Assembly: GCA_021817245.1 (NCBI GenBank)
Contig: JAKAVQ010000001.1
Coordinates: 212,265 to 276,264 of the forward strand
DNA: 64,000 nucleotides
Source of the DNA: Thermoplasmata archaeon
GTDB lineage: Archaea > Thermoplasmatota > Thermoplasmata > Lutacidiplasmatales > UBA184
Reading direction: 5' to 3'
In this document: positions 5,356 through 55,780 of the stretch, one piece after another
Position numbering within the stretch: position 1 is the first letter of the stretch
Layout of the letters: each line of letters opens with the position of its first letter
Notes under the pieces: model-generated
Database searches by the model: none
Told to the model about the DNA's origin: nothing
The model's input: only the letters and a program-made list of their open reading frames with translations
Translations under genes and position numbers: made by a program

Positions 5356-5476
5356 GCCTCCCCTCCAGGAAGAAAGCCGGTCGCGCGGCGGCCGAAAGGA
5401 GTTCGGTCGCGCAACACGTCATCTTACGTTGACATGAACCCTTTACGGGGTCCCGCGCTCCACGACGCGATGGCCT

Positions 5477-39140: not shown

Positions 39141-40328
39141 TTACGGTCGGGGGCGCGACCGGGTTCGAGCCCGCCCCGCCGGGGCGTCCGCGGACCCCTC
39201 CTCGGCCGGAAGGGAGAGGTCGCGGGGCGGGGAGAGATCCGGAGGAACGTACGGGACGTAGAGCGACTGACGGTACGCGCGCTCCTCGGGCAACTCCCTC
39301 GACTCCTCGGGGGGCCCCTCGGGGTCGGCCACCGGATCGGGCCCGAGCGGTTCGTCGACCTCGGCGAGCTCGTCCGTGCTCCCGGAGTCGGGCGGCGGCG
39401 TGGCATCGAGGTCGCTCTCCAGGCCTGAGGCGAGGTCGAGCGGCTCGTCCGTCGCTTCCTCGGTCGAGAGTGGTGGGCCCTCGGCGGCCAGCTTCCGCTC
39501 GTGCGTGAGCCGGCTGACCTCCGCCCAGAGCGCCTCGATCTCCTCCTCGGGGCTTCCGTACCGACGGTCCTCGCTGATCGCGGCGCGGACCTGCGCCATC
39601 AGCCGCGCCGCGCTCTGCGCGTTCTGCGCTCTCCCCTTGATGCGCTGGAGCCGGCGGGCGAGGTTCCGCGCCTCGATCAGGATCTCCTCCTCCTCGCTCG
39701 GGGTCACCGAAGGAAGCGCGGGCGCCCGCGGGATCCGGGCGACCGCCCGGCGAAGCTCGAGAAGCCGCTCCGCCGTCGACGGGATGTTCGCATCCTGCGC
39801 CGCTTGGACGAGAAGAGAGAACTGGCGGGTCGCTTCCGAGACTTCCTCGCCCCGGTTCCGGGCGCGGCGGATCGATTCGCCGAGCTGCTGGCCCTCCTGG
39901 AGGCAGAACTTCGGGATCGCATCGTTGAGGACGGCGAGCGCGAGGGAGGCGCTCGCCGCCGCCTTTTCGAGCGAACCCGCGCTGAGCGGCTCGTCCTTCA
40001 ACCGACGGCGGGGGTGGCCGACCCGGGCATCGAGGTGCGCGACGTCGACGCCGATCGTCTGCGCGATCGCGCGGAGATCGTCGACCCGTCGCAGGAGCTC
40101 GCGGACCCACGTCCAGTCCGGGCCGACCCGAGCGAGGAGCGCTTCGCCCCGCTTCACGACCGCGAGCGCCTGGAGGGGCGCGTCCTCGTCGAGCGCCTGC
40201 TCGAAGGCCGTCCCAATCTGTTCCGTCGGGAACGGCAGACCCTCCGCCTCGAGGAGCCGGCCACGCTCGAGCACCGCGCGCAGCCGGGCGCGTCCCTCCC
40301 CGAGCGCCGGGTCCTCCACGACCGCCAT
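39141..40328 (-). CDS. acidic alpha-helical hypothetical protein (395 aa)
   Basis: Ala/Leu/Glu-rich with low Arg bias: MAVVEDPALGEGRARLRAVLERGRLLEAEGLPFPTEQIGTAFEQALDEDAPLQALAVVKRGEALLARVGPDWTWVRELLRRVDDLRAIAQTIGVD… . Starts 3 nt after the stop of the upstream gene. Confidence 0.5.
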   Translation of the reverse strand: MAVVEDPALGEGRARLRAVLERGRLLEAEGLPFPTEQIGTAFEQALDEDAPLQALAVVKRGEALLARVGPDWTWVRELLRRVDDLRAIAQTIGVDVAHLDARVGHPRRRLKDEPLSAGSLEKAAASASLALAVLNDAIPKFCLQEGQQLGESIRRARNRGEEVSEATRQFSLLVQAAQDANIPSTAERLLELRRAVARIPRAPALPSVTPSEEEEILIEARNLARRLQRIKGRAQNAQSAARLMAQVRAAISEDRRYGSPEEEIEALWAEVSRLTHERKLAAEGPPLSTEEATDEPLDLASGLESDLDATPPPDSGSTDELAEVDEPLGPDPVADPEGPPEESRELPEERAYRQSLYVPYVPPDLSPPRDLSLPAEEGSADAPAGRARTRSRPRP

Positions 40329-40331
40329 GGC

Positions 40332-41597
40332 CTACGACCCTCCGCTGGCCGCGAGCACCCGCATCAGTTGCGTGAGCGTCTCGTCGGCCTCGCGCAGTCG
40401 GCGCGCGCGCAGCAGGTCGGTGGCCTGGCGGATCTGGACCGCGGCGTCGTGGGCGGTCTCGCTCTCCGGCGGGAGCGTGCGGACTCGGCCGGCGAGGCTG
40501 CGGGCCTTCCGAAGCAGCCGGTCGAGCATCGCGTCGTCGCTCTCCGTCGGGGAACCCGGGGCGGGAGCCGAGGAGGGAGGCGGGGGCAGTCGCTCGAGCT
40601 TTTCGAGCTCGCGGCGGAGCTCGCGAACGCTCTGGATCGCCTCGGAAAGCCTCCCCTTCTTCAAGTGGCGGGAGGCTTCGGCGTGGAGGCGGCGGGCGCT
40701 TGCGCCGACCGCATGCTCTTCGGGAAGCACGTCGAGGACCGAGCCGCTCCGCTGGAGCTCGGCTTCGAGCGATCCCGGGATCGCTTCGTGCAGCAGCATG
40801 AGGGTCTGCGCGGCCTCCTGGGCGAACGTGTCGAGCGCTTCCTCGGTGATCTCCGCGTCGCGGATCCGATCGCGCAACGCTTCGAGCTCTCCGGAGATCT
40901 CGCCGAGCGGGAGGCCGAGCTCCGCGGCGTCGTTGCGCAGCGACTCGATCCGGCCCAGCAGACCCTGAAGGCCCTTCCAGTCGGACTCGAGCTGGGATAG
41001 TCGGCGTTCGGCCTCGACCAGGAGCCCGACCGCCTCGGGCCGACGACCTCCCTCTAGGGCGTCCGCGATGCGTTCGAGCTCGTCGCCGAACGCGAAGCGG
41101 ACGTCCGCGCCGCGCAGCGCGTCGCGGCGCGCCCCGAGCGAGGCGAGCCGCTGCCGTACGACCTGGTCGGTCTCCGCTTCGATCCGGCTCTGGGCCGAGC
41201 GCAGGACCGTGAGCGCCTCCCCGACCTGGCCGTCGGCTTCCATTAGGGCCGCCTGGCAGAGCTCGCTCGTCACGTCGGGGCCCCGTCCGAGCTCGTGGCT
41301 CAGGTCCATGCGGGCGCGCAGGTCCCGGCTGATCGTGCCGTTGAGCTCGCTCTCGGGCGAAGGCGGCGGCCGGATCCGGGCCCGGGGGCCGGGGGTCGGG
41401 ACGCCGGGCACGGTCGGGGGGCCGGTTCCGCCGTCCGGCCCGGCCGGCCCGGAGGGGGTCGCCTCGACCGCGTGCAGCCCCTCGATCGCGAGCGCCGTCG
41501 GAAAGCCGCAGACCGAACAATGGGCCGCGGTGGAGACGATCGGTTGCTCACAGATCGGGCAGCTGGCTGGCACAGACCGTCGTCCTACGCCGGACAC
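40332..41597 (-). CDS. N-terminal Zn-ribbon plus coiled-coil hypothetical protein (421 aa)
   Basis: CPICEQPIVSTAAHCSVCGF (C-x2-C-x10-C-x2-C), a Pro-rich linker, then a long helical region. Start codon ambiguous (GTG). Confidence 0.5.
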   Translation of the reverse strand: MSGVGRRSVPASCPICEQPIVSTAAHCSVCGFPTALAIEGLHAVEATPSGPAGPDGGTGPPTVPGVPTPGPRARIRPPPSPESELNGTISRDLRARMDLSHELGRGPDVTSELCQAALMEADGQVGEALTVLRSAQSRIEAETDQVVRQRLASLGARRDALRGADVRFAFGDELERIADALEGGRRPEAVGLLVEAERRLSQLESDWKGLQGLLGRIESLRNDAAELGLPLGEISGELEALRDRIRDAEITEEALDTFAQEAAQTLMLLHEAIPGSLEAELQRSGSVLDVLPEEHAVGASARRLHAEASRHLKKGRLSEAIQSVRELRRELEKLERLPPPPSSAPAPGSPTESDDAMLDRLLRKARSLAGRVRTLPPESETAHDAAVQIRQATDLLRARRLREADETLTQLMRVLAASGGS

Positions 41598-41687: not shown

Positions 41688-41882
41688 TCAACCGCCGGAG
41701 AAGGTGGAGACGACCGTCAGCCGCATCGTTCGGTCGACCGGCGTGTCGAGCGGCACGGGGGTCTCCCCGTCGAGGACCGCGCAGCCCTCGGGGGCAGCGC
41801 CGATCCGGCGGAGCACCGAGCGCACGGTCGTCCCGCTCCGGACCGTGAGCGAGCGGAGCTCGACCGAACCGGCCCGGGTCAT
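41688..41882 (-). CDS. MoaD/ThiS-fold ubiquitin-like small protein ending in Gly-Gly (SAMP-like)
   Basis: MTRAGSVELRSLTVRSGTTVRSVLRRIGAAPEGCAVLDGETPVPLDTPVDRTMRLTVVSTFSGG. A 100-aa version starting at 41990 is the alternative. Confidence 0.6.
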   Translation of the reverse strand: MTRAGSVELRSLTVRSGTTVRSVLRRIGAAPEGCAVLDGETPVPLDTPVDRTMRLTVVSTFSGG

Positions 41883-42126
41883 CGCGAGGACGACCCCGAG
41901 CTCGGGGGCGGAGGCGCTGAGGGGGAGACTCTCCGTCGCGGGGGGGCGACCCGCCGCGTCCTTTGAACTCCCGCGATGCATACGCATCACCAGATCTCGA
42001 ATCTGGCGCCTTGGCCGAGCTAGGCTACCTCAGCACCCTGCCGGGGGGAAGGCCTCCCGTTCTTAGGTTTTGTCGGGGCGAGGAAGTCCGGTCGGCTCCT
42101 GGGGGATCCCGCGGAGCCGCAGGGGC

Positions 42127-43173: not shown

Positions 43174-43205
43174 GCCCGGAACCGGGGCCAGAGAAGAGAT
43201 ATTCC

Positions 43206-46040
43206 TTGCGGGGCCCCGCGAGTGCCGGGGAAACTACAAGAGGCCAGTCCTTCCATGCTGAGCCCACCGGATGCTCGCCAACCCGTTCGGCGATTGAGGG
43301 ACCCTTGCCCGAGGAGCGCGCGCACGAGCCGCCGCGCACGGGCCGAGTGTCGACCGGGAACACGGGCGTCGATACGATGCTCGAGGGGGGCCTCGTCCCT
43401 CGGCGACCGTACCTCATCGTCGGACCGTCGGGGACCGGAAAGACCACCCTCGCGCTCCAGTTCCTCATCGACGGTGCCCGCCGCGGAGAGCGGACGCTCT
43501 TCGTGACGACGGAGGAGCCCCCGAACGAGGTCCGCCTGAATCATCGCGCGCTGGGTTCCTCGCTCGACGATGTGGAGGTGTTCGACGCGATCCCGGACAT
43601 CATGCGCTACGAGCGCACCCCGTTCAAGGACATCGCGTCGGTGCGGGCGGTGACCCCGTTCCGGGAGGTGCCGCTCGAGATCCGACGCTCCCCCGAGCTC
43701 TCCGCGGTCGAGGTGACGATGACCGGGCTCGAGCAGATGATGCGCAGCGAGGTGCCCCGGCGCGGGTACTCCCGCATCGCGATCGACTCGCTGACCGCCC
43801 TTCAGTACTTCTGCATGAAGGGGTTCGACCCGGTGGCCGGAGCCCAGGCGTTCCTCCGCTTCCTCTCGGACCTCCGCGTCACGACGATCCTCACGGTCGA
43901 GTCCCCGCTCGAGGACGTCGAGACCCCCGAGCGGATGCTCGCGCGCGGCGAGATCCGGCTGTTCCGCTGGGAGCTCGACGGACGCACGGTCCGTGCGATC
44001 GGGGTCGAGAAGTTCCGCGGGAGCAGCCACGATGTCCGGCTTCACCCGTACCGGATCGGATCGCGCGGCCTCGACGTGAACCTGGACGTGACGATCTCCC
44101 GGGACACCCGGCAGATCTTGGAGACCCCGCTCCCTCCGCCGGAGGCCGTCTCCTCGCCCGTTCCCCCGATCCCCGAGGGCACCTCCTCCCCGGTCGACCC
44201 CTTGGGCGACGGGGTCCGAGACCTCGTGCTCGCCGGGGCCGAAGTGGGGCCGGTACGGACCGAGATCGAAGCGGCGCTCGGCGCGGCGGTGGCCGGGGAG
44301 ACCGACCGGCTCCAGGGCCACATCTCGCGCGCCGCCGCGCTCGTCGTCGCGGCGGGAGAGGGGCTGCACGACCGGCTGAAGGACACGGTGCCGAACGACG
44401 CGGTGGTCGCGGGGGCCTATCAGCGGATCCGACAGCGCAACGAAGCCGCGCGGGCCGGTCTGCCTCCCACGACGCTCCCGCCCCCGAAGCTTGTGGGGGC
44501 CCAGCTCGAGTGGGTGCTCTCCCTGTTGCCGCGGACCGCGCCAGGGGGGTCTGGGGGAACGCCGACGGTGGTCCCGCCGGCGACCATGGAGGCTCCGGCG
44601 AACGCCCCTGGGGCTCCGGAGACCCCGGCAGGGGAGCCTTTTGGGCTGGCGCTCGCCGACCGCCCGTCGCGCCTCACGCCCGATCGCCCCGTGGTCTCCG
44701 TTCCGGCCGTCCTCGGGCTCCCGCCCTCCGAGCCCGAGTCACTTCCGCCCATCTCCGTGAGCGGAGGCGAACCGTTGAAGGAGCTGACGACGGACGCGCT
44801 GACCGCCTCCCGCCGCACCGACCTCGGCACCCAAAGCGGAATGGCCGGGGAGGGTGCCCGCGATCCTGAGGTGCTCGCGTCGACGAGCCGTGCTTCTGTC
44901 GCTTCCGATCCGAGGTCCGACCGCCCGATCGAGCTCCGGCCCCTCACCCTGGAAGCGGAGTCCGCCAGTCCACGGGCGCCCCCGCCGCGCCCGGAAATGG
45001 CCGAAACCGGTCGGGTCGGAGAGCCGACCTCGACCCTCCCAGCTCCTCCCATGGCGCCCCCCTCCACGTCGGACGAAGCGGCGCCCACGCCGTCGATTGC
45101 GCACGGCCGATCGGAGCCGACCGGCATCCTCGCCGGCCCGATGGAGGCAACCGCGTCTCCGGCGGTTCCCGCGGCCGGCCCTCCGTCGCTCCCGGTGGGC
45201 GAGATCGCTGAACGGGCTCCGCGCGCTCCTGAGGAGACCCTTCTCCCCCCCGAGGACCGGTCGGCGCCGCCGACCGGCCGGCTGCCGTCTCCGCCCACGG
45301 CCATGGCGCGTCGGCCACCCCTCCCGACCGTCGCGAGCATGGCCCCGCGGCCGAGTCCCCGGCGCACGCCGTCGCGGGCCAGTACCGCCCCGGCGGCGGC
45401 CATCGCCACCGCCCGGGCGGCGGTACCTTTCGCTACCGCCGGCGCCGAGGCTGGACCTCCGGCCGGGTCTCCTACAGTCGCCCCGGTTCCGCCGGTCGCC
45501 GCCCCCCCCGCGGTGGACGCCGGCCCCGTCTCCCCCTCCTCGCCAGTCTCGGCCCCGGCGGGGGGATCCGTCTTCCCGGCCCCCAGCCCTCTGGCTCCGC
45601 CCGAAGCACCAGGGTCGCCCGCCACCGCTGCAGTCCCCCGTCGCCGACGCCGCACCTCCACGCCCAGGAAGAAGGCGGCAGCGCCGGCCCCCGCGGAGTC
45701 GGTTCCGACCGAGACTCCCTTGGTGACCTCGACGAGCGCGGAAGGCGGAGCCGTCGAGGGGACCATCGCCCCGGCAGTCCCTCTGGTGGAGGGTGCGGTG
45801 GCGGCCGGGTCGACGAAGCCGAAGCGCCGGCCGGCCCGTAAGCGCAAGGCGCCCCGAGTACTCGCCGCCAAACCCGGGCCGCTCCCACCCGAGTCGTCGG
45901 ATCCGTCCGGCGGGGACCCGCCACCGGTCGCGGCCCGGGATCCGCCCACCGATCCGATCCCCCGGTCATCCTCCGAGGCCCCGCCGAGCCCACCGTCGGA
46001 ACCGCCGCCGGAGCCCCCACCCCCGTCGGAGCCGTCGTGA
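43206..46040 (+). CDS. KaiC/RecA-superfamily ATPase domain (~300 aa) fused to a ~600-aa Pro/Ala/Ser-rich disordered region
   Basis: …VSTGNTGVDTMLEGGLVPRRPYLIVGPSGTGKTTLALQFLIDGARRGERTLFVTTEEPPNEV… (KaiC-like Walker A region), with an extra Walker-B-like segment RIAIDSLTAL. From residue ~330 onward, low-complexity P/A/S/T. Likely true start at GTG 43347. The downstream gene start overlaps this stop (GTGA). Confidence 0.7.
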   Translation: MRGPASAGETTRGQSFHAEPTGCSPTRSAIEGPLPEERAHEPPRTGRVSTGNTGVDTMLEGGLVPRRPYLIVGPSGTGKTTLALQFLIDGARRGERTLFVTTEEPPNEVRLNHRALGSSLDDVEVFDAIPDIMRYERTPFKDIASVRAVTPFREVPLEIRRSPELSAVEVTMTGLEQMMRSEVPRRGYSRIAIDSLTALQYFCMKGFDPVAGAQAFLRFLSDLRVTTILTVESPLEDVETPERMLARGEIRLFRWELDGRTVRAIGVEKFRGSSHDVRLHPYRIGSRGLDVNLDVTISRDTRQILETPLPPPEAVSSPVPPIPEGTSSPVDPLGDGVRDLVLAGAEVGPVRTEIEAALGAAVAGETDRLQGHISRAAALVVAAGEGLHDRLKDTVPNDAVVAGAYQRIRQRNEAARAGLPPTTLPPPKLVGAQLEWVLSLLPRTAPGGSGGTPTVVPPATMEAPANAPGAPETPAGEPFGLALADRPSRLTPDRPVVSVPAVLGLPPSEPESLPPISVSGGEPLKELTTDALTASRRTDLGTQSGMAGEGARDPEVLASTSRASVASDPRSDRPIELRPLTLEAESASPRAPPPRPEMAETGRVGEPTSTLPAPPMAPPSTSDEAAPTPSIAHGRSEPTGILAGPMEATASPAVPAAGPPSLPVGEIAERAPRAPEETLLPPEDRSAPPTGRLPSPPTAMARRPPLPTVASMAPRPSPRRTPSRASTAPAAAIATARAAVPFATAGAEAGPPAGSPTVAPVPPVAAPPAVDAGPVSPSSPVSAPAGGSVFPAPSPLAPPEAPGSPATAAVPRRRRRTSTPRKKAAAPAPAESVPTETPLVTSTSAEGGAVEGTIAPAVPLVEGAVAAGSTKPKRRPARKRKAPRVLAAKPGPLPPESSDPSGGDPPPVAARDPPTDPIPRSSSEAPPSPPSEPPPEPPPPSEPS

Positions 46041-46816
46041 GCGCTCCCGAGCTCCGACCGGAACACCGGGTCGCCACCGGCATCCCCGGGCTCGACCGGA
46101 TGCTGGGCGGAGGGCTTGTCAGCGGCCGACCGTACCTCGTTACCGGCGGCTCGGGGAGTGGAAAGACGCTCCTGGGGCTCATGTTCCTGCTCGAGGGGCT
46201 GCGTCGGGGCGAGCAGGTGCTCCTGGTCGCGGTCGACGAGCCGCCGGCCGAGATCATGGAGAACGTCGGGGCGTTCGGTTGGGACCTCTCCCAGGTCTCG
46301 ACCCTCGACGCGAACCCGGGCACGCGGGCGATCAAGCGGAACCTCGCCGTGCAGGAGATCCGCACCATGACCGACCTTCGCTCCCTGCGCGAACTATCCC
46401 AGGAGACGAAGCGGACGAGCGACGCCGAAGACGTGTCCGTACAGTCGATCCAGCTCAAGCTGCGGCAGCAGATGGCGGACCGCCCTTTCCGCCGGGTCCT
46501 CGTCGACTCGATCACGTCGGTCCGGCGTTTCACGGTCAAGGCCTCGGTCGACCCGCAGGCGGAGCGGACGGAGATCCAGTCGCTCCTGCGCTTCCTCTCG
46601 GAGTCCGGGGTCACGACGCTGATCACGGCGAATCCGAGCGACCCCGGGGTGCTCACGCCCGAGGAGGTCCTGACCCGGGGGGAGATCCTGCTGAGCCGCA
46701 AGTGGATCGATGACCGATCGGTCCGACAGGTCAAGATCGTCCGGATGCGCGGCTGCGCGCACGACCCCGAGCGTCGTCCGTTCGTCATCACGAACCAGGG
46801 GATCGTGGTCGGCTAG
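46037..46816 (+). CDS. KaiC-like single-domain RecA-superfamily ATPase
   Basis: GTG start. TGIPGLDRMLGGGLVSGRPYLVTGGSGSGKTLLGLMFLLEGLRRGEQVLLVAVDEPPAEIMENVGAFGWDL… and Walker B RVLVDSITSV. 259 aa. Confidence 0.8.
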   Translation: MSAPELRPEHRVATGIPGLDRMLGGGLVSGRPYLVTGGSGSGKTLLGLMFLLEGLRRGEQVLLVAVDEPPAEIMENVGAFGWDLSQVSTLDANPGTRAIKRNLAVQEIRTMTDLRSLRELSQETKRTSDAEDVSVQSIQLKLRQQMADRPFRRVLVDSITSVRRFTVKASVDPQAERTEIQSLLRFLSESGVTTLITANPSDPGVLTPEEVLTRGEILLSRKWIDDRSVRQVKIVRMRGCAHDPERRPFVITNQGIVVG

Positions 46817-46870: not shown

Positions 46871-47371
46871 GTGGCGTTCTGGATCCTGAAGGAGGAGCCG
46901 ACGGTCTACTCCTACCACCACCTCGAGCGCGACGGCGCGACGCGCTGGACCGGCGTCCACAACGCCCTCGCCCTGCGCCACCTCCGGGCGATGCGTCCGA
47001 AGGACCGCGCGCTGTACTACCACACCGGGGCGGAGCGGTCGTGCGTCGGGATCGTCGAGGTCGCTTCGGAGCCTCAACCCGACCCATACGACGACCGCGG
47101 ATCCTACCGCGTGGACGTTCGTCCCGTCCGGGCTCTCCGCCGACCGATCCCGCTCTCCGAAGTGAGGCTCGACCCCGCGCTCGCCGGGATCGCGCTCGTA
47201 CGGCTCCCCCGGCTGTCGGTGCTTCCGCTCTCCGAGGACCAGTGGGTCCGTCTCCTCGCCCACGAAGACGCGACGCCGCGACCCGGGCCGGTCCTCACAC
47301 CAGGAGCGAAGGGTCGCGGGACAACGAGCGTCCCACGGCCCCGGCCCACCGGGGCGCGGCGTAGACGCTGA
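46871..47371 (+). CDS. EVE (PUA-like) domain protein
   Basis: MAFWILKEEPTVYSYHHLERDGATRWTGVHNALALRHLRAMRPKDRALYYHTGAERSCVGIVEVASEP… matches the EVE domain signature. The C-terminal ~30 aa overlap the convergent HD gene and may be read-through. Confidence 0.75.
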   Translation: MAFWILKEEPTVYSYHHLERDGATRWTGVHNALALRHLRAMRPKDRALYYHTGAERSCVGIVEVASEPQPDPYDDRGSYRVDVRPVRALRRPIPLSEVRLDPALAGIALVRLPRLSVLPLSEDQWVRLLAHEDATPRPGPVLTPGAKGRGTTSVPRPRPTGARRRR

Positions 47372-48560
47372 GCGCCCAGTCGGACGGGGGGCGCTCCGCC
47401 AGCGTGCGCCACGGGCTCGTCCCCCGGAACGGGAACGTCGTGCGGCCCCCGACGATCAGTCCGATTTCCCCCCAGTCGTCGCCGGGAGCCGTCCCGGGAG
47501 CGACGCCGATGAGATCGATGAGCACGGACCCGGGCGGCGCCTTCACGCGCGCGGCCACTTGGTCTTCGAGCGCTCGTCGTTCTGCCGGTCGGGCGAGGAG
47601 CCGCCGCCACGCCCGCCGCGCCCTTCCCTCGGCCGTTCGCCGACCGAAGGCCCGCTTGTACAGCCGACGCTCCGTCAATCCCGCGACCAGGGCGCCGCTC
47701 ATTCCCCCGGCCTCGGAAAGGCGCAGGAGAAGCTCGCCGTCGGTCGCCCGGAAGAGCGGACGGGCCGCCTCGGGGTAGCCCGGGAGCCGTTCCACCGCCC
47801 CCTGGGCCATCATCTCGGCGGCGCGGACGGTCTTGTGAAAGTAGACCGAGGAGTACATCAGCGCCCGTGCGACCAGGAACCCCTCGACCGCGCTCCGGCC
47901 CTTCTCGGCGAAAGCGATCCGCTCTCCGGCCGATCGGATCGTGTCGAGCAGGCGGACCGCGTCGACCGCCCCGTGAGCGACCCCGGTGTAGTACGCGTCG
48001 CGTTGCAGGTAGTCGATGCGATCCGCGTCGATCGCACCGTGCAGGATGCGGAGGAGGAGGGGAGCGCCGCCTGCCGCCGGGAGCCGGAGGAGGTCGGCGA
48101 CCGCGCGCGGCGAGATCCCGAACCGCTCGAGGACCCGGGGGACCTCGACCTTGTCGGCCGGCCAGTCCGGGTCCGTGCCCTCGACGCGGTCCCGGGAGAG
48201 CTTTTCGTGCGGACCCCCCAGCACCTCGGCCATCGGGCCGTCGAGGGTGTGGGAGAACGGACCATGGCCGAGGTCGTGGAGGAGCGCGCCGGCCGTCACC
48301 GTCTCTATCGTGGCGGTCGGCAACGCGAGTCCCTCCGCCATGCGGCGAGCGACCCAGTAGGTCCCGAGCGAGTGCTCGAGACGGGTGTGGTTCGCCCCGG
48401 GAAAGACGAGGTGGGCGAACCCGGTCTGCCGGATCCCCCAGAGCCGCTGGAACTCCGGGGTGCCGATCAGCGCGAGCGCGGCCCCCTCGAAGGAGATCGG
48501 TCCGTGTACCGGGTCGAAGATCGACTTCCGCGGACTTCGGCCCGGGCGGCCTCCGGCCAT
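47295..48560 (-). CDS. HD-domain phosphohydrolase (dGTPase/SAMHD1-like dNTP triphosphohydrolase family)
   Basis: …IFDPVHGPISF…FQRLWGIRQTGFAHLVFPGANHTRLEHSLGTY…LLHDLGHGPFSH…IDADRIDYLQRDAYYTGV. Start taken at MAGGRPGRSP (48560); a GTG at 48650 is the alternative. Confidence 0.8.
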   Translation of the reverse strand: MAGGRPGRSPRKSIFDPVHGPISFEGAALALIGTPEFQRLWGIRQTGFAHLVFPGANHTRLEHSLGTYWVARRMAEGLALPTATIETVTAGALLHDLGHGPFSHTLDGPMAEVLGGPHEKLSRDRVEGTDPDWPADKVEVPRVLERFGISPRAVADLLRLPAAGGAPLLLRILHGAIDADRIDYLQRDAYYTGVAHGAVDAVRLLDTIRSAGERIAFAEKGRSAVEGFLVARALMYSSVYFHKTVRAAEMMAQGAVERLPGYPEAARPLFRATDGELLLRLSEAGGMSGALVAGLTERRLYKRAFGRRTAEGRARRAWRRLLARPAERRALEDQVAARVKAPPGSVLIDLIGVAPGTAPGDDWGEIGLIVGGRTTFPFRGTSPWRTLAERPPSDWALSVYAAPRWAGAVGRSLSRDPSLLV

Positions 48561-48635
48561 CGCCCGGCGGCAGGCGTGCCCGACCTTAAGCCCCCGGCCG
48601 CCGGCCCGGCGCGCAACCCGCCAGTCGAGGACGAA

Positions 48636-48646
48636 CGTATTTATGA
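48636..48646 (+). promoter_or_regulatory. TATA-like box (CGTATTTATGA) ~27 nt upstream of the TPR-protein ATG
   Basis: AT-rich motif at archaeal TATA spacing; no SD; implies a leaderless start at 48671. Confidence 0.4.
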
Positions 48647-48670
48647 ACACGTTGACGTCGGAGAACGGTC

Positions 48671-51600
48671 ATGAGTACACAGGGGTCCGCCCAGGACCCG
48701 AACGGCGACCCGGTCGGGGGGATCCACGCGCACTGGCACGCGGTCGAGGAAGCGGAGTCGCGCCCCGACCGAGGGCGGTACCTGGGGGCGCTCAAGGGGT
48801 TCCTTGCGTTCGCCGAGGGCCACGCGGCGGAGCTCGCCAACGCCGCGGCGGAGGCGACCCCGCTGCTCGAGGAGGCCGCGATGGCGTTCTCTCGGGCGGG
48901 CCAGCCGGACTTCGCCCGTCGGGCGGTCGACCTCGGGCTCTCCCTCACCCCGGGCTCCGCCTCGCTGCTCCACCAGAAGGCGCTCGTCCTGCTCGCGCAG
49001 AACCAGGACCTTCCCGAGGTCGTCCGCCTTACCGACCAGGCTCTCGAGGCGAACCCGCACGACAAGGGCCTCTGGGCGACGCGGGCGGATGCGCTTCGGC
49101 TTGAGGGGCTTACGGCCGAGGCGGTCGAGTCGTATCTCAAGGCCCAGCAGCTCGACGCGGCATCGACCCAGTACGTCGACAAGGCCCTCAAGATCGCACC
49201 GCGCGACCCCCGCGTTCTCCGTACGAAGCTCGACCTCGCCCGCGCGCTCGGCGGCGAACTGCCGGCCCTCGCGGCGTGCGAGGAGCTCCTGAAGGAGCGG
49301 CCGGACGACCTCGAGCTCCTCGATGCCCGGGCGGAGCTCCTCGCCGCCCTCGGCCGGACCGAGGAGGCGCTCGAGCCGCTCGCCCGGGTGCGGGCCGCGC
49401 TCCCGGACGACGTCCGGTCCAACCTGCTCGCGGTCCGCCTGCTCGTCCGTCTCGGACGGGACGAGGAGCTGCTCCCGATCGCGAAGGCGATCGTGGAGGG
49501 CGTTAAGGCCCCGGATCCCGCGGCGCTCGGCGAGATCGCCCACCTCACCGAGACGAAGTTTCCCGAGCTGGCGCTCTCCGCGCGGGAGCACCTCAAGGAC
49601 CTCGACCCGAGGAACCTCCAGAACCTGCTCGATCTGCGGACGCTCGCGACGCGGCTCGACCAGCCCGAGATCGCGCTCGCGGCACTGCGCACCGTCCTCT
49701 CGACTCAGCCCGACAGCCTCGAGGCGATGCGGGGGATCGCCGAGATCGAGCTCGGCCAGGGCCACGGCGAAGCGGCCCTCGAAGCGTACCGCGCGCTCGC
49801 CAAGGCGCATCCCCACGCGGTGAGCGAGCTCCGGAAGGGGCTCGATGCCGCCCGGGAGCTCGGACGCCCGGACCTCCTCCTCGAGTTCGCGCGGGCGATC
49901 CTGGGCGAAGATCCCGCCGACCTCGCCGCGCAGGTCGCGCTGGCCCGAACGCTCGCGTCCGCCGGGCAGCTCGCCGAAGCGCTCCGGGCCTACGACGCCC
50001 TCCTCGCCGCGCACCCCGGCGATCTCGACTACCTTCTCGAGAAGAAGGACGTGGTGGCCCGCGCGGACGATCCGGTCGCTCTCGCCTCGGTGCTGGACGA
50101 CCTGTTCCGCCTCGATCCGACGCGCACCGAGGTCGCCGTGGAGCGCGGGAACCTCCACCTGAACCTCGCGTACGACCGGCCGGAAGGTTCGGCCGAGCGA
50201 GAGCGCGATGCGCGGACCGCGCTCGTCTCCTACGAGCGGGCATCCACGGACCCGCAGGCGGCCGCCATCGCCGGTCTCGGGATCGCCCGCGCCTCTCGAT
50301 TGATCGGGGACCACGAACGGGCGATCCGCGCCTACGAGAGCTTTCTCGCCCCCCCCTCGAACCAGGGGCGGTACGACATCCTGAAAGAGCTCGGTCACGC
50401 GCTCCGGGAGACCGGACGATACTCCGAGGCCGCGGAGGCCTACGGCCGCGCGATCTCGGGCGGCCTCGAGGACCCCGACCTTTTCTGGGGGGCCGCCGAG
50501 GTGCTCGCCCAGCTGAACCAGGACGCCCGGGCCCTGCAGCTGCTCGACCTCCTGCTGCGACGGGAGCCGTCGAACCCCCTCTATCTCCGACGCAAGGGCC
50601 AGCTCCTCCTCAAGGCCGGTCGCCGCGCGGACGCGCTCGCGGTCCTGCAGCAGGCGGTGGCGAGCGCGCACGGGGACCCCCACGCGTACTTCGAGGTCGC
50701 GGAAGCGCTGCGGGCCCAGGGAGCGTACGCCGACGCGGTCTCGTACTACCGGCGCGGGATCGGCCTCGACCCGAAGAACCGCCACGGGCGGCTCGCGCTC
50801 GCCGAGACGCTCGGGCTGGCCGGTCAGTACTCGGAGGTCGTCGACCTCATCGACCCGCTGCTCACCGAGGACCCGAACGATATCGCCGCTTGGAGGGTCC
50901 GGGGCGACGCGCTCCGGGCCCTCGGCCGGCCATCGGAGGTCCTCTACTCCCTACGGGCGATCCTCCTTCTCGAACCGGACAACGGCCCGGCCCTCCTCGA
51001 GATGTACCGTCTCCATCGCGACGCCAAGGAGACGAAGGAGGCGTTCGAGACGCTGAGCCGGCTTCTCGCCTCCGACGCTCCCGAGGCGCAGGACGCGACC
51101 CTCCAGCTCGAGCGCGGAGACCTCGCGGCCAGCCTCGGTCTTACCGAGGAAGCGAACGGCTCCTACGAGCGCGCCGCGCAGATCGACCCGGTCTACGGCG
51201 TCGAGATCGCGATCCGCCGCGCCCGACTGCGCCTCACCGCCGGTCGTCCGGATCTCGCCCTCGAGGTCCTCGACGAGGGGCTGAAGGGCCACCCGGAAGG
51301 TGCGCCGCCGAACCTCGGGGCGCTCCTCCTTCGGGCCGAGATCCTCGACGCGCTCGAGCGACCGGCCGAGTCCCGGGCCGTCTACGAAGAGGTCCGCCGC
51401 CGGGAGCCGAAATCCCCGGTCGCGCTCGCCGGCATCGCGCGGGCGATGCTCGCCCAGGGTCAGCACGCGGACGCCGCGGAGTTCCTGCGCGCTTCGATCC
51501 CTCAGGTGCCGCCGCAGGAATCCCTCTACCTCCTTCTCGCCGAGGCCGAAGGGGGGCTCGGCCACCTCGACCGAGCGACGGAGGCGGTCCGGGAGGGGAC

Positions 51601-53272
51601 CAAGGTCCTCCCGAAGAGCGTCGCGCTCTGGCGCCGCCTCGGAGAGCTCGGGGTGGCCCTGCAGGCCTGGGCCGACGCCGCGGGCGCGTTCGCGCACGCC
51701 CTCTCGATCGCTCCGGCGGAGCTCGAAGTGCTGCTGCGCGCCGGCTTCGTCGCCGAGCGGATGGGGCATCCGAACGAGGCGCTCGCGTTCTACGAGCGCG
51801 CGACGGAGGCCGATCCCGCGTCGAAGCAGGGCTGGACCAGCCGGGGGCTCGCGCTCCTCGCCACGTCCCGGCCCAATGACGCGACGCTCTCCTTCGACCG
51901 CGCGCTGGCGCTCGACTCGGACTACGCCCCCGCGAAGGACGGCAAGAAGGTCGCCTCCCAGAAGACCCGGGACGTCGAGATCCAGAAGCACGGCCGGGAG
52001 GCGCTTCTCCTCGAAGCCCGGCTGAACCGCACGGTCGCGAAGAACGATCTCTTCGTCACGCTCCACGTCCCGTACGAGTTCCTCGAGCCGGTGCTGAGCG
52101 CGATCGGACGGACGCCGAAGATCGACCTCGAGACGCTCGAGGCGGGGGAGGTCCGGGACCTCGAGAACGCCTCCTACCATCTCATCACGTCGGCCCTCGA
52201 GCGGCGTCCCCCCGGGATCGAACGCCGGGGGTTCACGCTCGCGGACGTGGCCGTCCTCGCCCCCCCCGCGTACGCCCTCGACCAGATCCAGCGGCTCTTC
52301 GGCTACCTGAAGGCGGTCCTCGAGGCCGACCTCCGCGCGGAGAACCTTTCGCTCACGCCCGACGTCGAGGAGCTCGCGCGCCAGGCGCTCGGGCTGCCGG
52401 CGGAGCAGCGCACCCTCTTCCAGATCGTGAAGAACCTGCGGGTCGGGATCTTCAAGGCCCGGCTCATCAAGGTCGTCGAGGCAGCGGGAAGCGCGGTCCA
52501 CGCGCCGCTGCCCTCGCTCGATCTCGGCGCCTACTCCCCCGAGTTCCGCAGGGCGGAAGGAGAGGAGGCCGCCTCCGACGGAGAGCGGTTTTTCGCCCCT
52601 GAAAACACCCCGGGGCCCTCCGCGATCGACGCCGTCCCGGCCGGGCACCCCGACTGGTCGGCCGAGCCGCTCCCGGCCGCCCACGTTCCCGAGGCCCTAG
52701 CGCCGTCGGGCCCGGCGGCGCCGGGGCCCGTCCCCGGAGGCTCGGCCCCGGCCCGGTGCGTCGGGTGCGGAGGGATCGCCTCCGTGGTCCACGTCTGTTC
52801 CGCTCCGCTCTGCCAGCACTGCATCGGCCAGTTCCCGAACTGCCCGAAGTGCGGGGAGCCGGTCTCCACCGACTCGACGCATCCGGTGGAGGGGGTGGTC
52901 GTCGTGCGAGCGGCCGCACCGCACTCGGCCGCGCATCCGACCGGTACGCTGAGCGGCTTGCGCGGGGTCTTCGGCCGGTCCAAGTCCGGCCCGTCGAAGG
53001 GCGAGGCGCCGACCGCCCACCCGACCGCGGGAAAGCAGGAGCACCCGCTGAAGCCGGCCCACACCCCGCCCGAGAAGTCGCATCCCTCCGCGGCGCCGGC
53101 CACCGCGCTGCCGGCGCCGAAGAGGGACACCCCCTCTCCGACGCCGGGCCACCCGCCGACCGCCAAGGAACCGAAGCCGGTTCCCGGAAAGCCGATCGCC
53201 GAACCGCCCCCGCCTCCACCCACCCCTCCGCGCCCTCGCCGGGAGAAGCGGGACGACGAGCCCCGTCTCTGA
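48671..53272 (+). CDS. giant TPR-repeat protein (1533 aa) with C-terminal Zn ribbon and Pro-rich tail
   Basis: Dozens of 34-residue TPR-like repeats (A/L/E/R-rich with a W/Y-x-x-A/G-x-A pattern); …CVGCGGIASVVHVCSAPLCQHCIGQFPNCPKCGEP…; final ~150 aa P/K/T-rich. Confidence 0.8.
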   Translation: MSTQGSAQDPNGDPVGGIHAHWHAVEEAESRPDRGRYLGALKGFLAFAEGHAAELANAAAEATPLLEEAAMAFSRAGQPDFARRAVDLGLSLTPGSASLLHQKALVLLAQNQDLPEVVRLTDQALEANPHDKGLWATRADALRLEGLTAEAVESYLKAQQLDAASTQYVDKALKIAPRDPRVLRTKLDLARALGGELPALAACEELLKERPDDLELLDARAELLAALGRTEEALEPLARVRAALPDDVRSNLLAVRLLVRLGRDEELLPIAKAIVEGVKAPDPAALGEIAHLTETKFPELALSAREHLKDLDPRNLQNLLDLRTLATRLDQPEIALAALRTVLSTQPDSLEAMRGIAEIELGQGHGEAALEAYRALAKAHPHAVSELRKGLDAARELGRPDLLLEFARAILGEDPADLAAQVALARTLASAGQLAEALRAYDALLAAHPGDLDYLLEKKDVVARADDPVALASVLDDLFRLDPTRTEVAVERGNLHLNLAYDRPEGSAERERDARTALVSYERASTDPQAAAIAGLGIARASRLIGDHERAIRAYESFLAPPSNQGRYDILKELGHALRETGRYSEAAEAYGRAISGGLEDPDLFWGAAEVLAQLNQDARALQLLDLLLRREPSNPLYLRRKGQLLLKAGRRADALAVLQQAVASAHGDPHAYFEVAEALRAQGAYADAVSYYRRGIGLDPKNRHGRLALAETLGLAGQYSEVVDLIDPLLTEDPNDIAAWRVRGDALRALGRPSEVLYSLRAILLLEPDNGPALLEMYRLHRDAKETKEAFETLSRLLASDAPEAQDATLQLERGDLAASLGLTEEANGSYERAAQIDPVYGVEIAIRRARLRLTAGRPDLALEVLDEGLKGHPEGAPPNLGALLLRAEILDALERPAESRAVYEEVRRREPKSPVALAGIARAMLAQGQHADAAEFLRASIPQVPPQESLYLLLAEAEGGLGHLDRATEAVREGTKVLPKSVALWRRLGELGVALQAWADAAGAFAHALSIAPAELEVLLRAGFVAERMGHPNEALAFYERATEADPASKQGWTSRGLALLATSRPNDATLSFDRALALDSDYAPAKDGKKVASQKTRDVEIQKHGREALLLEARLNRTVAKNDLFVTLHVPYEFLEPVLSAIGRTPKIDLETLEAGEVRDLENASYHLITSALERRPPGIERRGFTLADVAVLAPPAYALDQIQRLFGYLKAVLEADLRAENLSLTPDVEELARQALGLPAEQRTLFQIVKNLRVGIFKARLIKVVEAAGSAVHAPLPSLDLGAYSPEFRRAEGEEAASDGERFFAPENTPGPSAIDAVPAGHPDWSAEPLPAAHVPEALAPSGPAAPGPVPGGSAPARCVGCGGIASVVHVCSAPLCQHCIGQFPNCPKCGEPVSTDSTHPVEGVVVVRAAAPHSAAHPTGTLSGLRGVFGRSKSGPSKGEAPTAHPTAGKQEHPLKPAHTPPEKSHPSAAPATALPAPKRDTPSPTPGHPPTAKEPKPVPGKPIAEPPPPPPTPPRPRREKRDDEPRL

Positions 53273-53331: not shown

Positions 53332-53889
53332 ATGGCGAGCCCTTCGACCGGTCTTCGGCCGGTGCGCGACCGTTGGAGCGGCGCGGTGCTGACCGCGCTG
53401 TTCCTCGTCCTCGCGGTCCTCATCTTCGCGGCGCTGTACTTCGCCTTGCCGGCGCAGTCCCACTTCTACGCGTTGATCGCGATCGGAATCGTCTCCCTCC
53501 TCTTCGCGCTCGGATCCTACCTCGCGGAGGCCGCGTCGAAGCAGCCGACCGCCCAGCGGTCGCTCGCGTGGGGGTTCTTCGGTATGGGGTTCGCCGTGCT
53601 CCTGCTCACGGTCGGTCTCAGCACGACCTACGGGATCCTTGGCATCACGGCGGCGCTTGTCGGCCTCATCCTGATCGTCGTGGTCCTCTTCGTCACGGTC
53701 CTGCTGATCGCCTGGCGGGGCCGGGCCGTGCGCGCGACCGAGAACCAGCAGGTCGCCCGCGCGGCCTGGAGGGCGGAGTCCGCTCCGTCGGCGTTCTCCT
53801 ACGCGACCGCGAACTCGCCGAGCGTCCCCCAGACCGTGCCGGCGCCCCCGACCGGCGGTCCGGCGTCCCCGCCTCCCCGGAGTCCGTAA
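53332..53889 (+). CDS. integral membrane protein (4 TM helices) with Pro-rich C-terminal tail
   Basis: AVLTALFLVLAVLIFAALYFAL…, YALIAIGIVSLLFALGSYL…, LAWGFFGMGFAVLLLTVGL…, ITAALVGLILIVVVLFVTVLLIAW…. Stop is 1 nt before the next ATG. Confidence 0.65.
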   Translation: MASPSTGLRPVRDRWSGAVLTALFLVLAVLIFAALYFALPAQSHFYALIAIGIVSLLFALGSYLAEAASKQPTAQRSLAWGFFGMGFAVLLLTVGLSTTYGILGITAALVGLILIVVVLFVTVLLIAWRGRAVRATENQQVARAAWRAESAPSAFSYATANSPSVPQTVPAPPTGGPASPPPRSP

Positions 53890-53890
53890 G

Positions 53891-54592
53891 ATGGCGACCA
53901 ACGCAAATCCTGCGCCCGCACCGGTCCCGACCCCGACCGTCTGCCCAAAGTGCGGCACCCCGGCCCCCGCCGGGGTCCGCTTCTGCGGAGCGTGCGGTTC
54001 GTCGCTGACGGTCGTCTCGGGCAGCTCGACCGGGACGCTTCCGCCCGCGGCCGCTCCCCCGGTCGATCTCCGTCAGACGGTCGAGGCGAACCGGGGGTGG
54101 CTCAAGCGGCTCCAGCTGCTGATCCCCGGTTTCCGAGGCTACCGTCAGGGGGAGGATATCCGGGAGGCGGACGCCTTCCTGCGCCTCCAGGTCGCCGACA
54201 AGATCCGCAACGCACGCACGACCGTCGAGAACAGCCGCGCGGGCCTCGCGAACGCCGGCCAGTTCGGGGTCCTGAACGACCTGTCGCCGCTGATCGCGAA
54301 CCTCTGGCAGCTCGAAGGAGAGGTCCGCCATGCCGAGCAGGGGTATACGGGCATCTCGCCGGCGGTGCGCGTCAACCCCCAGCAGCTCGACCGCCTCTAC
54401 GAGTACGACTACGGGTTCGCGCAGGCGGCCGACCAGCTGAACACCACCGTCTCCTCGCTCCCCGAGTTGCTCCTGGGTGGGGACGCAACGAAGGCGCCCG
54501 GGGTGATCGCGGCGGCCCGCGGCGAGGTCAACCAGCTCGGCCAGGCGTTCAAGGCGCGTCTCCAGGTGATCGAGGGGATCCGCATCTCGTAG
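53891..54592 (+). CDS. N-terminal Zn-ribbon protein with helical C-terminal domain
   Basis: CPKCGTPAPAGVRFCGACGS (C-x2-C-x10-C-x2-C), a Pro/Ala linker, then a ~170-aa mostly helical domain. Confidence 0.6.
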   Translation: MATNANPAPAPVPTPTVCPKCGTPAPAGVRFCGACGSSLTVVSGSSTGTLPPAAAPPVDLRQTVEANRGWLKRLQLLIPGFRGYRQGEDIREADAFLRLQVADKIRNARTTVENSRAGLANAGQFGVLNDLSPLIANLWQLEGEVRHAEQGYTGISPAVRVNPQQLDRLYEYDYGFAQAADQLNTTVSSLPELLLGGDATKAPGVIAAARGEVNQLGQAFKARLQVIEGIRIS

Positions 54593-54619
54593 CGAGTACC
54601 GGCCGAACGGAGGAGAACG

Positions 54620-55780
54620 ATGGTCACGAACAACCCGATCCCGGCGAAGGGCGGCAGTCTCATCGGCGCGACGACGATCAACTGGGAGGACGTCTACAAG
54701 GGCAACAACGTCCTCTGGCGCGTTCCGCGGAACATCCGCTGGAACGACAACATCGTGGTCCGTGAGGACGAGACCGCGGTCTTCTACCGGGACGGAAAGG
54801 TCCTTGCGTACCTCGATAAGCCGGACCGGTACGCGCTCACCAGCATGAACACCCGCCTGGTCGGCGGGGTGATTCAGGCGCTCTCGGGGGTCCGCCAGGA
54901 GGCGGAGGTCTACTACCTCCAGCGCCGCATCTTCGACGGGAAGTTCGGCAGCGCCGAACCGTACGTCTTCCGCGACCCGGACTTCGGCCTCGTGAACCTG
55001 CGAGTCTTCGGCAGCTACCGCTGGCGCGTCGGCGCGCCGGACAACTTCATCAATCAGTTCGTCGGGACGTTCGGCGCCGTCTCGACGCCCGACGTCGAGG
55101 CGCGTCTGCGGGACCAGATGGTCCTTTTGATCTACAACACGCTCGGCAAGATGAAGGAGCAGGGGCTGCGGGTCACCGACCTCGCCGCCCAGGTGATGAC
55201 GATCGAGCAAGCCGTGCTCGGCTTCGCCCCCCAGCATTTCGGACCTCTCGGGGTCGAGATCAACCAGCTCCAGGGCCTTTCGATCAACCTGCCCGACGAG
55301 GTCACGAAGGCCGTCAACACCCGCTCGAAGATGGGGGTGCTCGGCGTGAACTACATGCAGTACCAGGCCGGCCAAGCGATGACCACCGCGGCCGCGAACC
55401 CCTCCGGAGGTGCCGGCGCGATGGCCGGCGCCGGTGTCGGGCTCGGAGCGGGCCTCGGGATCGGGTACGGCATGGTCGGCCAGATGCAGGGCGCCTACGC
55501 CGCCGGGCCGAGCCAGCCGTGCCGGAAGTGCGGGGCGATGGTCCCGGCCGGGACCCGGTTCTGCCCGAGCTGTGGCAACCCGATGACGGCGCCGCCTCCG
55601 GAGGCGGCCGGGCCCCCATGCCCGAAGTGCGGGCAACCGACCGCTCCGGGCGCGAAGTTCTGCCCGAGCTGCGGAGCGTCGCTCGCACCGGCTCCTCCCC
55701 GAAAGTGCCCGAAGTGCTCGGCGGACGTTCCGGCGGCGAGCAGGTTCTGCCCGAGCTGCGGCACCGCTATGGGGCCGTGA
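54620..55780 (+). CDS. SPFH/Band-7-like (Band_7_1, YdjI-type) protein with three C-terminal Zn ribbons
   Basis: N-terminus …WEDVYKGNNVLWRVPRNIRWNDNIVVREDETAVFYRDGKVLAYLDKPDRYALTSMNTRL…EVYYLQRRIFDGKFG… resembles the PF13421-type SPFH family. The C-terminus carries CRKCGAMVPAGTRFCPSCG, CPKCGQPTAPGAKFCPSCG and CPKCSADVPAASRFCPSCG. Confidence 0.7.
   Translation: MVTNNPIPAKGGSLIGATTINWEDVYKGNNVLWRVPRNIRWNDNIVVREDETAVFYRDGKVLAYLDKPDRYALTSMNTRLVGGVIQALSGVRQEAEVYYLQRRIFDGKFGSAEPYVFRDPDFGLVNLRVFGSYRWRVGAPDNFINQFVGTFGAVSTPDVEARLRDQMVLLIYNTLGKMKEQGLRVTDLAAQVMTIEQAVLGFAPQHFGPLGVEINQLQGLSINLPDEVTKAVNTRSKMGVLGVNYMQYQAGQAMTTAAANPSGGAGAMAGAGVGLGAGLGIGYGMVGQMQGAYAAGPSQPCRKCGAMVPAGTRFCPSCGNPMTAPPPEAAGPPCPKCGQPTAPGAKFCPSCGASLAPAPPRKCPKCSADVPAASRFCPSCGTAMGP

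Follow-up and report, generated by a model that had tools for sequence, protein, structure and literature searches.

In a 64,000-nt window of contig JAKAVQ010000001.1 (positions 212,265 to 276,264; assembly GCA_021817245.1, Thermoplasmata archaeon), two adjacent genes encode KaiC-family ATPases, and the first of them, ORF1 (ORF, open reading frame), runs on for about 640 residues beyond its ATPase domain. Comparison with orthologs indicates that this extension is translated and under purifying selection. It is a modular structure, built of a helical bundle, a spacer and short conserved motifs, and not one disordered region. The second gene, ORF2, encodes a single-domain paralog. With moderate confidence, we read the pair as a two-subunit, lineage-specific KaiC-like ATPase whose long tails would tether it to an anionic partner.

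Coding and build of the ORF1 extension

The search for ORF1 homologs covered 5.8 billion proteins and returned more than 120 orthologs; the motif counts given here refer to the 120 best matches listed, all of them members of the family. These proteins have 558-923 aa, and their alignment covers ~44% of the query, that is, the ATPase domain plus ~150 aa. Past the ATPase domain they continue for 289-656 aa, and none ends after that domain with an intergenic gap. Conserved peptides are found far into the extensions: PPLP occurs in 119/120 orthologs, against about 0.3 chance occurrences expected per tail, and an RKRKAP-like motif in 107/120, located 33-67 aa from the C-terminus and 320-610 aa past the end of the ATPase domain. 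The most divergent members, reached by a profile search, display the same element order; most of them have RKRKAP, and in several it is degenerate.

The ratio of nonsynonymous to synonymous substitution rates (dN/dS) was obtained for five pairs of species representatives. It is 0.02-0.13 in the ATPase domain, 0.13-0.39 in the bundle and 0.34-0.45 in the tail. When the tail is read in all six frames, the ORF1 frame has the lowest values, the mirror frame gives 0.42-0.55 and the other four 0.87-2.1. Since more than 150 orthologs keep the frame open, the motifs near its far end are conserved, dN/dS is frame-specific and the frame stops at a conserved junction with ORF2, it is reasonable to conclude that the extension is translated and under purifying selection. 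The original prediction had taken the long frame to be probably real and had proposed orthologs as a check; the comparison, in which no ortholog stops right after the ATPase, bears this reading out.

Codon usage, also proposed in the original prediction, is a weak test here. The window has ~72% GC and long open frames on both strands. In-frame GC content at third codon positions (GC3) is 0.90-0.98 over the ATPase domain and falls to 0.76-0.86 over the tail, with the second-position value (GC2) rising. At four-fold degenerate sites, GC3 of the tail is 0.82 in frame and 0.72-0.80 in the other frames, with 0.90 in the training genes. The codon log-likelihood is near zero and, beyond ~45000, cannot be told from that of some other frames. 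GC3 and log-likelihood were dropped as a coding test for the tail, the signal being too weak, especially at 45000-46040, and ortholog architecture and frame-specific dN/dS were used instead. A 548-aa antisense ORF, Gly/Ala/Ser-rich, overlaps the tail on the minus strand (44420-46066). Most probably it is a shadow ORF of the high-GC DNA: the conserved motifs can be read only on the sense strand, and the dN/dS control places selection on the ORF1 frame or its mirror.

The extension has 642 aa and is composed of 20.7% Pro, 16.5% Ala and 9.0% Ser, with <1% aromatics, in agreement with the Pro/Ala/Ser-rich region first described. The basic patches reported near its end are also there, and are two in number, RRRRRTSTPRKK and KPKRRPARKRKAP. 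The abundance of PxxP, remarked upon at the same time, was rejected as a signal, being close to what composition alone would give (29 observed, 26 expected). As for disorder, the original description holds for the spacer, presumably, and fails for ~120 aa that form a confidently predicted folded five-helix bundle. Outside the bundle, composition and low values of the predicted local distance difference test (pLDDT) at the first post-bundle residues suggest that the extension is presumably disordered.

Alignment of the bundle reveals invariant D, G, R, A, R, R, R, G, P and L positions. Relatives were sought in Pfam, in PDB sequences and, with Foldseek, in PDB structures, with no match. A bundle profile found 42 matches only among 1.84 billion representative proteins, nearly all of them at residues ~290-410 of 600-900-aa proteins with an N-terminal Walker A; the exceptions are shortened fragments and one spurious match of 3,945 aa. 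The bundle is thus predicted to be a new small helical domain, specific to this family.

The spacer that follows varies from 31 to 313 aa across orthologs, with a median net charge of -4.4 per 100 aa, and slippage-type duplication probably drives this ~ten-fold length variation. Next come PPLP and two polybasic motifs. The family consensus of the first polybasic motif is KRRRK-x(4-8)-RKK, also found as AKRRRK..A..RK; together with KPKRRxxRKRKAPxV, the second, it resembles nuclear localization signals (NLS). The acidic/basic/acidic charge pattern of the extension is conserved among ORF1 orthologs. A search for RKRKAP on other proteins, over 872 kb of related loci, gave only out-of-frame Arg-rich noise and frameshifted copies of ORF1 (loci L055 and L075). 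Tandem repeats were also observed: a 24-bp unit present 2.3 times in the tail of the window protein (45383-45440) and, in the spacer of ortholog P0006, four copies of EPAPEE[A/T]V[V/I]AS.

The KaiC-type pair and its translational coupling

Both proteins score above the gathering cut-off (26.6 bits) of Pfam PF06745: ORF1 with 113 bits (E=1.8e-32, aa 48-291 of its maximal 944-aa frame) and ORF2 with 155.6 bits (E=1.7e-45). Among solved structures, ORF2 matches KaiC chains (E about 1e-40) and, over its whole length, PH0284 (E=7e-25). An AlphaFold2 (AF2) model of the N-terminal 431 aa of ORF1 has a RecA-like fold, and Foldseek returned KaiC as its best match (E about 3e-11, probability 1.0); the top 45 PDB matches are all KaiC, followed by PH0284. 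The two tandem KaiC-type single domains of the original prediction are therefore supported by profile and structure searches alike. Because their ATPase domains can be aligned from one end to the other, with 38% identity over 250 aa (E=2e-51), ORF1 and ORF2 are tandem paralogs, ORF1 being the paralog with a C-terminal extension.

Sequence motifs suggest that both paralogs are catalytically equipped, with intact Walker A, Walker B and catalytic-Glu motifs. ORF1 carries GPSGTGKT, TTEEPP and IDS. Across 43 orthologs there is no change in the Walker A Lys, in one of the catalytic Glu residues or in the Walker B Asp, and the other Glu is kept in at least 90%. The corresponding motifs of ORF2 (GGSGSGKT, VDEPP and VDS) are kept in at least 99% of 121 sequences, in which half of the positions are invariant, including Walker A/B and DEPP. 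ORF2 is the more conserved of the two, with orthologs 77-99% identical versus 55-79% for the ATPase domain of ORF1. Within this domain lies a nearly invariant insertion, FDAIPDIMRYERTPFKDIASVR, which may be a candidate subunit or partner interface; AF2 gave pLDDT <50 at model residues 85-96, inside the insertion, and at 114-122. The paralogous segment of ORF2, at about 46295-46370, is likewise conserved.

Cyanobacterial KaiC (PF06745; PDB 2gbl, 4o0m) is the best match in sequence and structure, sharing the RecA-like fold, Walker A/B and the catalytic Glu. It too has two homologous ATPase modules per functional unit, which here are encoded by separate, translationally coupled genes. Its C-terminal "tentacles" protrude from the ring and bind KaiA. 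They have about 30 aa, versus about 640 aa here, on the first module. By analogy, the closest working model for the ORF1-ORF2 pair would be a KaiC ring whose C-terminal tentacles are far longer. A second group of relatives comprises archaeal single-domain KaiC-like ATPases (PH0284/2dr3, PH0186, TIGR03877/TIGR03878, ArlH), with one KaiC domain of ~250 aa; adjacent pairs of such genes ("thermo_KaiC", TIGR03877/TIGR03878) are known in Thermococcales. In contrast to these, ORF1 and ORF2 carry a conserved insertion of ~40 aa, and the bundle and tail of ORF1 were found nowhere else. A third comparison is with Rad55-Rad57, RadB and aRadC (Sso2452), since ORF1 and ORF2 are likewise a pair of RecA-fold paralogs and a putative heteromer, and source databases use the generic name "KaiC/GvpD/RAD55 family"; the likeness to RadA/RadB, however, is limited to the P-loop region and far below cut-offs.

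Scores against curated families are all short of their cut-offs. Clock KaiC equivalogs (NCBIfam TIGR02655/NF006799) give 47-131 bits versus 408 and 546, and neither protein has the two-domain chain of these families. Among TIGR03877, TIGR03878, TIGR03880 and TIGR03881, the archaeal KaiC subfamilies, the best is thermo_KaiC_1 (64 bits for ORF1, 95.5 for ORF2, cut-off 307). ArlH/FlaH gives 21 bits versus 215, RadB 16-19 versus 172-278 and RadA/Sms 25-32 versus 403. Since these cut-offs are not reached, the pair is best classified as KaiC-family ATPases that belong neither to clock KaiC, ArlH or RadB nor to a curated archaeal KaiC subfamily. No KaiA or KaiB is present among the Pfam-annotated gene calls of three related loci, in which no dedicated search for them was made. 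Archaeal single-domain KaiC-like ATPases are the class for which a role as signalling hubs was put forward, a bioinformatic proposal on signal transduction by Makarova et al. (2017), as cited in PMC8978795.

The two genes meet in a GTGA overlap, as originally predicted, with a GGAG at 46028-46031, five bases upstream of the ORF2 GTG (junction sequence ...GGAGCCGTCGTGAGC). An NTGA overlap is found in 44 of 63 loci and a gap of 0-6 nt in a further 13, so that the stop/start junction is kept in 57/63, and most loci have GGAG(G) 5-10 nt ahead of the ORF2 start, within the last codons of ORF1. ORF1 and ORF2 are adjacent in all 37 long loci. Given the GGAG, the overlap and the conservation of the junction, the two proteins are in all likelihood made from one message by tightly coupled translation. 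A recurrent "...PEG" at the C-terminus of orthologs was considered as a peptide motif and rejected, as its codons spell the GGAGG ribosome-binding site of ORF2. The six exceptions are loci of metagenome-assembled genomes (MAGs), L055, L061, L065, L073, L075 and L083, in which the ORF1 frame overruns the ORF2 start or stops early; the C-terminus of ortholog P0104 is Arg-rich and looks out of frame. At least two of the six, L055 and L075, have RKRKAP again in a shifted frame, and these are therefore best seen as frameshifted assemblies or pseudogenes, not as short-tailed orthologs. More generally, the exceptions and P0104 seem to result from frameshifts within the low-complexity tail, due to assembly error or to genuine pseudogenisation.

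The maximal ORF1 frame spans 43206-46040 (944 aa), with an alternative GTG at 43347. The start at 43206, assumed originally, falls between two conserved AT-rich boxes and is probably not used. TTG 43305 is the likely start, because it coincides with an NTG column kept in at least 80% of 83 aligned upstream regions, the database copy of ORF1 (P0001) has 911 aa (100% identical at rounding) and ortholog N-termini lie ~14 aa ahead of RVSTGN. Box 1 (GAGATATTCCTT) is ~27 nt upstream of the PGI ATG (43173, minus strand) and, from archaeal promoter geometry, is probably the TATA element of a leaderless PGI transcript. Box 2 (GAAACTACAAGAGG), about 60-75 nt upstream of the ORF1 start codon, is probably a candidate promoter element of the ORF1-ORF2 operon. 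A conserved AT(G) at 43246-43248, ~3 nt past box 2, is out of frame with ORF1. Coordinates of all these features are collected in the table.

Table. Features of the ORF1-ORF2 locus, in window coordinates; residues of the extension are numbered from TTG 43305.
Feature	Coordinates	Strand	Residues or length	Remarks
AT-rich box 1, GAGATATTCCTT	43196..43207	.		A.ATAT..TT pattern across 83 loci; divergent PGI/ORF1 intergenic region
AT-rich box 2, GAAACTACAAGAGG	43230..43243	+		GAA..T....GA in at least 80% of 83 aligned upstream regions
ORF1, long-tailed KaiC-like ATPase	43305..46040	+	911 aa	from TTG 43305
KaiC/RecA-like ATPase domain of ORF1	43347..44111	+		Pfam PF06745, Foldseek
ORF1 Walker A	43422-43445	+		GPSGTGKT
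ORF1 catalytic EE	43512-43517	+		
ORF1 insertion, FDAIPDIMRYERTPFKDIASVR	43581..43646	+	~22 aa	invariant columns F79-R100
ORF1 Walker B Asp	43785-43787	+		
Pro-rich linker	44112..44186	+	aa 270-294	low pLDDT at model residues 255-273; variable in orthologs
Five-helix bundle	44187..44540	+	aa 295-412	AF2 pLDDT 88.9, predicted template modelling score (pTM) 0.80
Variable Pro/Ala/Ser/Glu-rich spacer	44541..45308	+	aa 413-668	net acidic, presumed disordered
RRPPLP motif	45309..45326	+	aa 669-674	three Pro columns at least 90% conserved
Basic motif 1, RRRRRTSTPRKK	45639..45674	+	aa 779-790	within mildly basic stretch; aligned C-terminal regions of 60 orthologs
Basic motif 2, KPKRRPARKRKAPRVLAAKPGPLPP	45816..45890	+	aa 838-862	core R..RK.KAP.V nearly invariant, at least 90% conserved
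Acidic Pro-rich end of ORF1	45891..46037	+	aa 863-911	median charge -13.7 per 100 aa
GTGA overlap	46037..46040	+		ORF2 start GTG 46037-46039, ORF1 stop TGA 46038-46040
ORF2, single-domain KaiC-like ATPase	46037..46816	+	259 aa	paralog of ORF1 ATPase domain
ORF2 Walker A	46145-46168	+		
EVE-domain gene	46871..47371	+		Pfam EVE E=3.7e-34; 54 nt downstream of ORF2

Possible function of the tail

We hypothesize that the two paralogs assemble as a mixed ring or as stacked rings, as in the hexamers of KaiC and PH0284; paralogy, strict co-occurrence and translational coupling all point to an ORF1-ORF2 heteromer. The five-helix bundle would sit on the ring as a collar. Because selection keeps the charge pattern and the open frame, not the sequence, the spacer may be a flexible tether whose length and composition matter more than its exact residues. 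PPLP and the polybasic motifs would then dock the ATPase onto partners, with the polybasic tip binding an anionic surface, and the ATP or phosphorylation state of the ring could control what the tentacles hold. Control of this kind would fit the hub role suggested for archaeal KaiC-like ATPases. The same design principle, a folded core followed by a fast-evolving low-complexity linker and short conserved motifs, is known from the C-terminal half of RNase E, the linker and peptide of FtsZ and the linker and tip of SSB. Arg/Lys-rich motifs are among those shared, and the likeness is one of analogy only: these proteins are bacterial, have other core folds and show no homology to ORF1.

NLS-type basic segments of archaeal ribosomal proteins contact RNA. 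The resemblance of the tail motifs to such segments makes nucleic acid the leading candidate for the ligand of the polybasic tip, albeit a tentative one, to which we give somewhat less than even weight. The occurrence of NLS-type motifs in archaeal ribosomal proteins is described by Melnikov et al. (bioRxiv 10.1101/671966). An acidic protein, for example the acidic 1,500-aa TPR protein always found nearby, is a less probable ligand, which we would call doubtful, and a membrane is an improbable one. We also entertain, as a long shot, a multivalent version of the tentacle: NLS-like R..RK.KAP.V motifs, up to six per ring, on entropic spacers of 300-600 aa, would be read in extended form by an alpha-solenoid receptor (the TPR protein being a candidate) or would bridge to nucleic acid. 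If true, with either receptor or nucleic acid, a KaiC ring would be the base of an ATP-gated scaffold or condensate system in an archaeon, and the solenoid version would parallel, in a prokaryote, the recognition of an NLS by importin-alpha.

Several observations weigh against a tethered two-subunit ATPase. The disorder of the spacer is judged from composition and from pLDDT <50 at the first post-bundle residues only, and the spacer evolves fast, over a ~ten-fold length range, such that much of it may be nearly neutral. The coding signal of the distal tail is weak, with a codon log-likelihood of ~0, like that of some other frames, beyond ~45000. The strictly kept A-P-x-V behind the basic residues is easier to reconcile with docking on a specific protein than with general binding of nucleic acid. 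Synteny says little about function, as the sampled genomes are fairly close relatives and the whole neighbourhood is conserved. Finally, hetero-oligomerisation, ATPase/kinase activity and binding partners are all predictions drawn from sequence.

Four other explanations were considered. It is unlikely, in our view, that only the ATPase and the bundle are functional and that the Pro/Ala-rich region is mostly near-neutral sequence, grown by GC pressure and replication slippage and simply tolerated. Such drift would suit a GC content of 72%, which favours CCN and GCN codons, the variable lengths of tail (289-656 aa) and spacer (31-313 aa), the 48-60% identity between close species in the tail versus 90-97% in the ATPase, the descent of four-fold GC3 to 0.82 with codon log-likelihood about 0, the short tandem repeats at 45383-45440 and in the P0006 spacer, and the Pro-rich segments (63-193 aa) of other proteins in the window. 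However, the dN/dS of the tail (0.34-0.45) is well under 1 in a frame-specific manner, the motifs past the spacer hardly vary and are reached through a frame that stays open, orthologs share the acidic/basic/acidic charge pattern and none of them lacks a spacer. Near-neutrality fits the spacer alone, where it can coexist with a tethering tail. That the frame is untranslated past the ATPase domain, as a chance high-GC open frame or a read-through artefact, is scarcely credible and is effectively refuted by the comparative data. High-GC DNA does yield long ORFs, with a 548-aa antisense one overlapping this very tail, and the codon-usage signal is weak in 45000-46040; but conserved peptide motifs lie 500-850 aa into the frame in >100 orthologs, dN/dS is frame-specific, the frame stops exactly at the ORF2 start in 57/63 loci, and RKRKAP reappears in a shifted frame of L055 and L075.

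The remaining two accept the tail and give it another role. The pair might be a recombination/repair mediator like Rad55-Rad57 or the archaeal RadA paralogs (RadB, aRadC), with a DNA-binding polybasic tail. We find this distinctly unlikely: the RecA-fold paralog pair, weak matches to RadA, RadB and RecA, the polybasic motifs and nucleic-acid-related neighbours (the EVE gene and an HD dNTPase-like gene) are in its favour, yet the best sequence and structure matches are to KaiC, not RadA/RadB, with all of the top 45 Foldseek matches being KaiC, RadB reaches 16-19 bits versus cut-offs of 172-278, other repair genes are absent from the neighbourhood and EVE is present in only 21/37 loci. Alternatively, and very improbably, the polybasic tip could anchor the ring to the anionic cytoplasmic membrane, the spacer setting the distance between the two. 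A stretch of 20 residues with a charge of +8, small hydrophobic residues after it (APPVV..A), and nearby membrane-associated or zinc-ribbon proteins with Pro linkers, such as the SPFH protein at 54593-55780, would agree with an anchor, but no amphipathic helix or transmembrane segment is evident in the tail, and the acidic 30-55 aa after the motif would oppose membrane binding.

Neighbourhood, distribution and significance

Gene order around the pair is strongly conserved: TFIIB, two unknown proteins, a SAMP2-like protein, PGI (minus strand), ORF1, ORF2, often an EVE gene, an HD/HD_assoc_2 gene (minus strand) and a TPR protein of ~1,500 aa. ORF1, ORF2, HD and TPR occur together in 37/37 long loci, and the EVE gene in 21/37; the distribution is that of a housekeeping-type system. 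The EVE gene may belong to the same operon as ORF1-ORF2. The convergent HD/HD_assoc_2 gene, dNTPase-like, is at 47295-48650 (minus strand), and its 3′ end overlaps that of the EVE gene by 77 nt (70-77 nt in the gene calls of L002 and L003). A defence-system reading of KaiC, EVE and HD was rejected, as PADLOC returned nothing beyond a weak P-loop likeness to mad8 (24 bits) and, for the HD gene, a dGTPase fragment. The TPR protein (48671-53272, plus strand) has 1,533 aa and a net charge of -44; a Cys-rich zinc ribbon at its C-terminus is accompanied by a basic, Pro-rich tail. Its gene is two genes away from the KaiC pair in 37/37 long loci, and the protein is a speculative partner of the tail motifs.

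Other neighbours deserve mention. A 100-aa ORF at 41688-41990 (minus strand), with a C-terminal ...STFSGG, is similar to SAMP2, a small archaeal modifier of the ubiquitin-like kind (Pfam PF21965, E=8.7e-6 and 26.5 bits, just below the cut-off of 27; NCBIfam SAMP2, E=2.9e-5) and is located upstream of PGI in 34/37 related loci. In L003, a 495-aa GvpD-type P-loop gene (5320-6807) stands between the SAMP2-like gene and PGI, beside the KaiC pair. Two adjacent genes without a Pfam match (39141-40331 and 40332-41597, both minus strand) are conserved in 32-33/37 loci; the product of the latter combines a zinc ribbon at the N-terminus with a Pro-rich linker of 98 aa and a coiled coil, and weakly matches an archaea-specific SMC-related protein. 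Zinc ribbons and Pro-rich segments of 74-102 aa are also found in the products of 53708-54592 and 54593-55780 (both plus strand), the latter an SPFH/Band-7 protein with several C-terminal zinc ribbons. It seems that this lineage repeatedly pairs a zinc ribbon with a Pro-rich linker.

A scan of GTDB species representatives gave 161 matching stretches. The best 80 of these 161 come from different isolates, of which 78 bear the title Thermoplasmata archaeon and the other two the titles Methanobacteriota archaeon and bacterium; the source samples listed are soil, peat and acid-soil metagenomes, and UBA184 is included. UBA184 belongs to the order Lutacidiplasmatales (TMEG), with ~69% GC and genomes of ~2.1 Mb (Sheridan et al. 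2022, PMC9287336), and we infer that the window belongs to this order. By these matches, the family appears confined to high-GC soil and peat Thermoplasmata (Lutacidiplasmatales/TMEG-type MAGs), as a family trait and not a quirk of one genome. Source annotations are generic ("ATPase domain-containing protein", "KaiC/GvpD/RAD55 family"), and our literature search found no paper describing this architecture or pairing KaiC-like with proline-rich. Although present in databases, the proteins are uncharacterised, and one archaeal order alone has the bundle-plus-tail architecture.

Long disordered regions are generally considered scarce in archaeal proteomes, and archaeal KaiC-like ATPases are abundant and almost entirely uncharacterised. 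ORF1 and its orthologs are a clear example of a KaiC-type motor linked to a private helical domain and to a long presumed tether, apparently maintained by selection, with sharply conserved short motifs. They also indicate that, in DNA of >70% GC, low-complexity sequence which does code for protein can escape GC3 and codon-bias tests and yet be recognised by comparative ones. PPLP, the two polybasic motifs and three invariant Arg of the bundle provide mutable handles for finding what an archaeal KaiC-like "hub" connects to, and ORF1 itself is a candidate marker protein for uncultured soil and peat TMEG/Lutacidiplasmatales.

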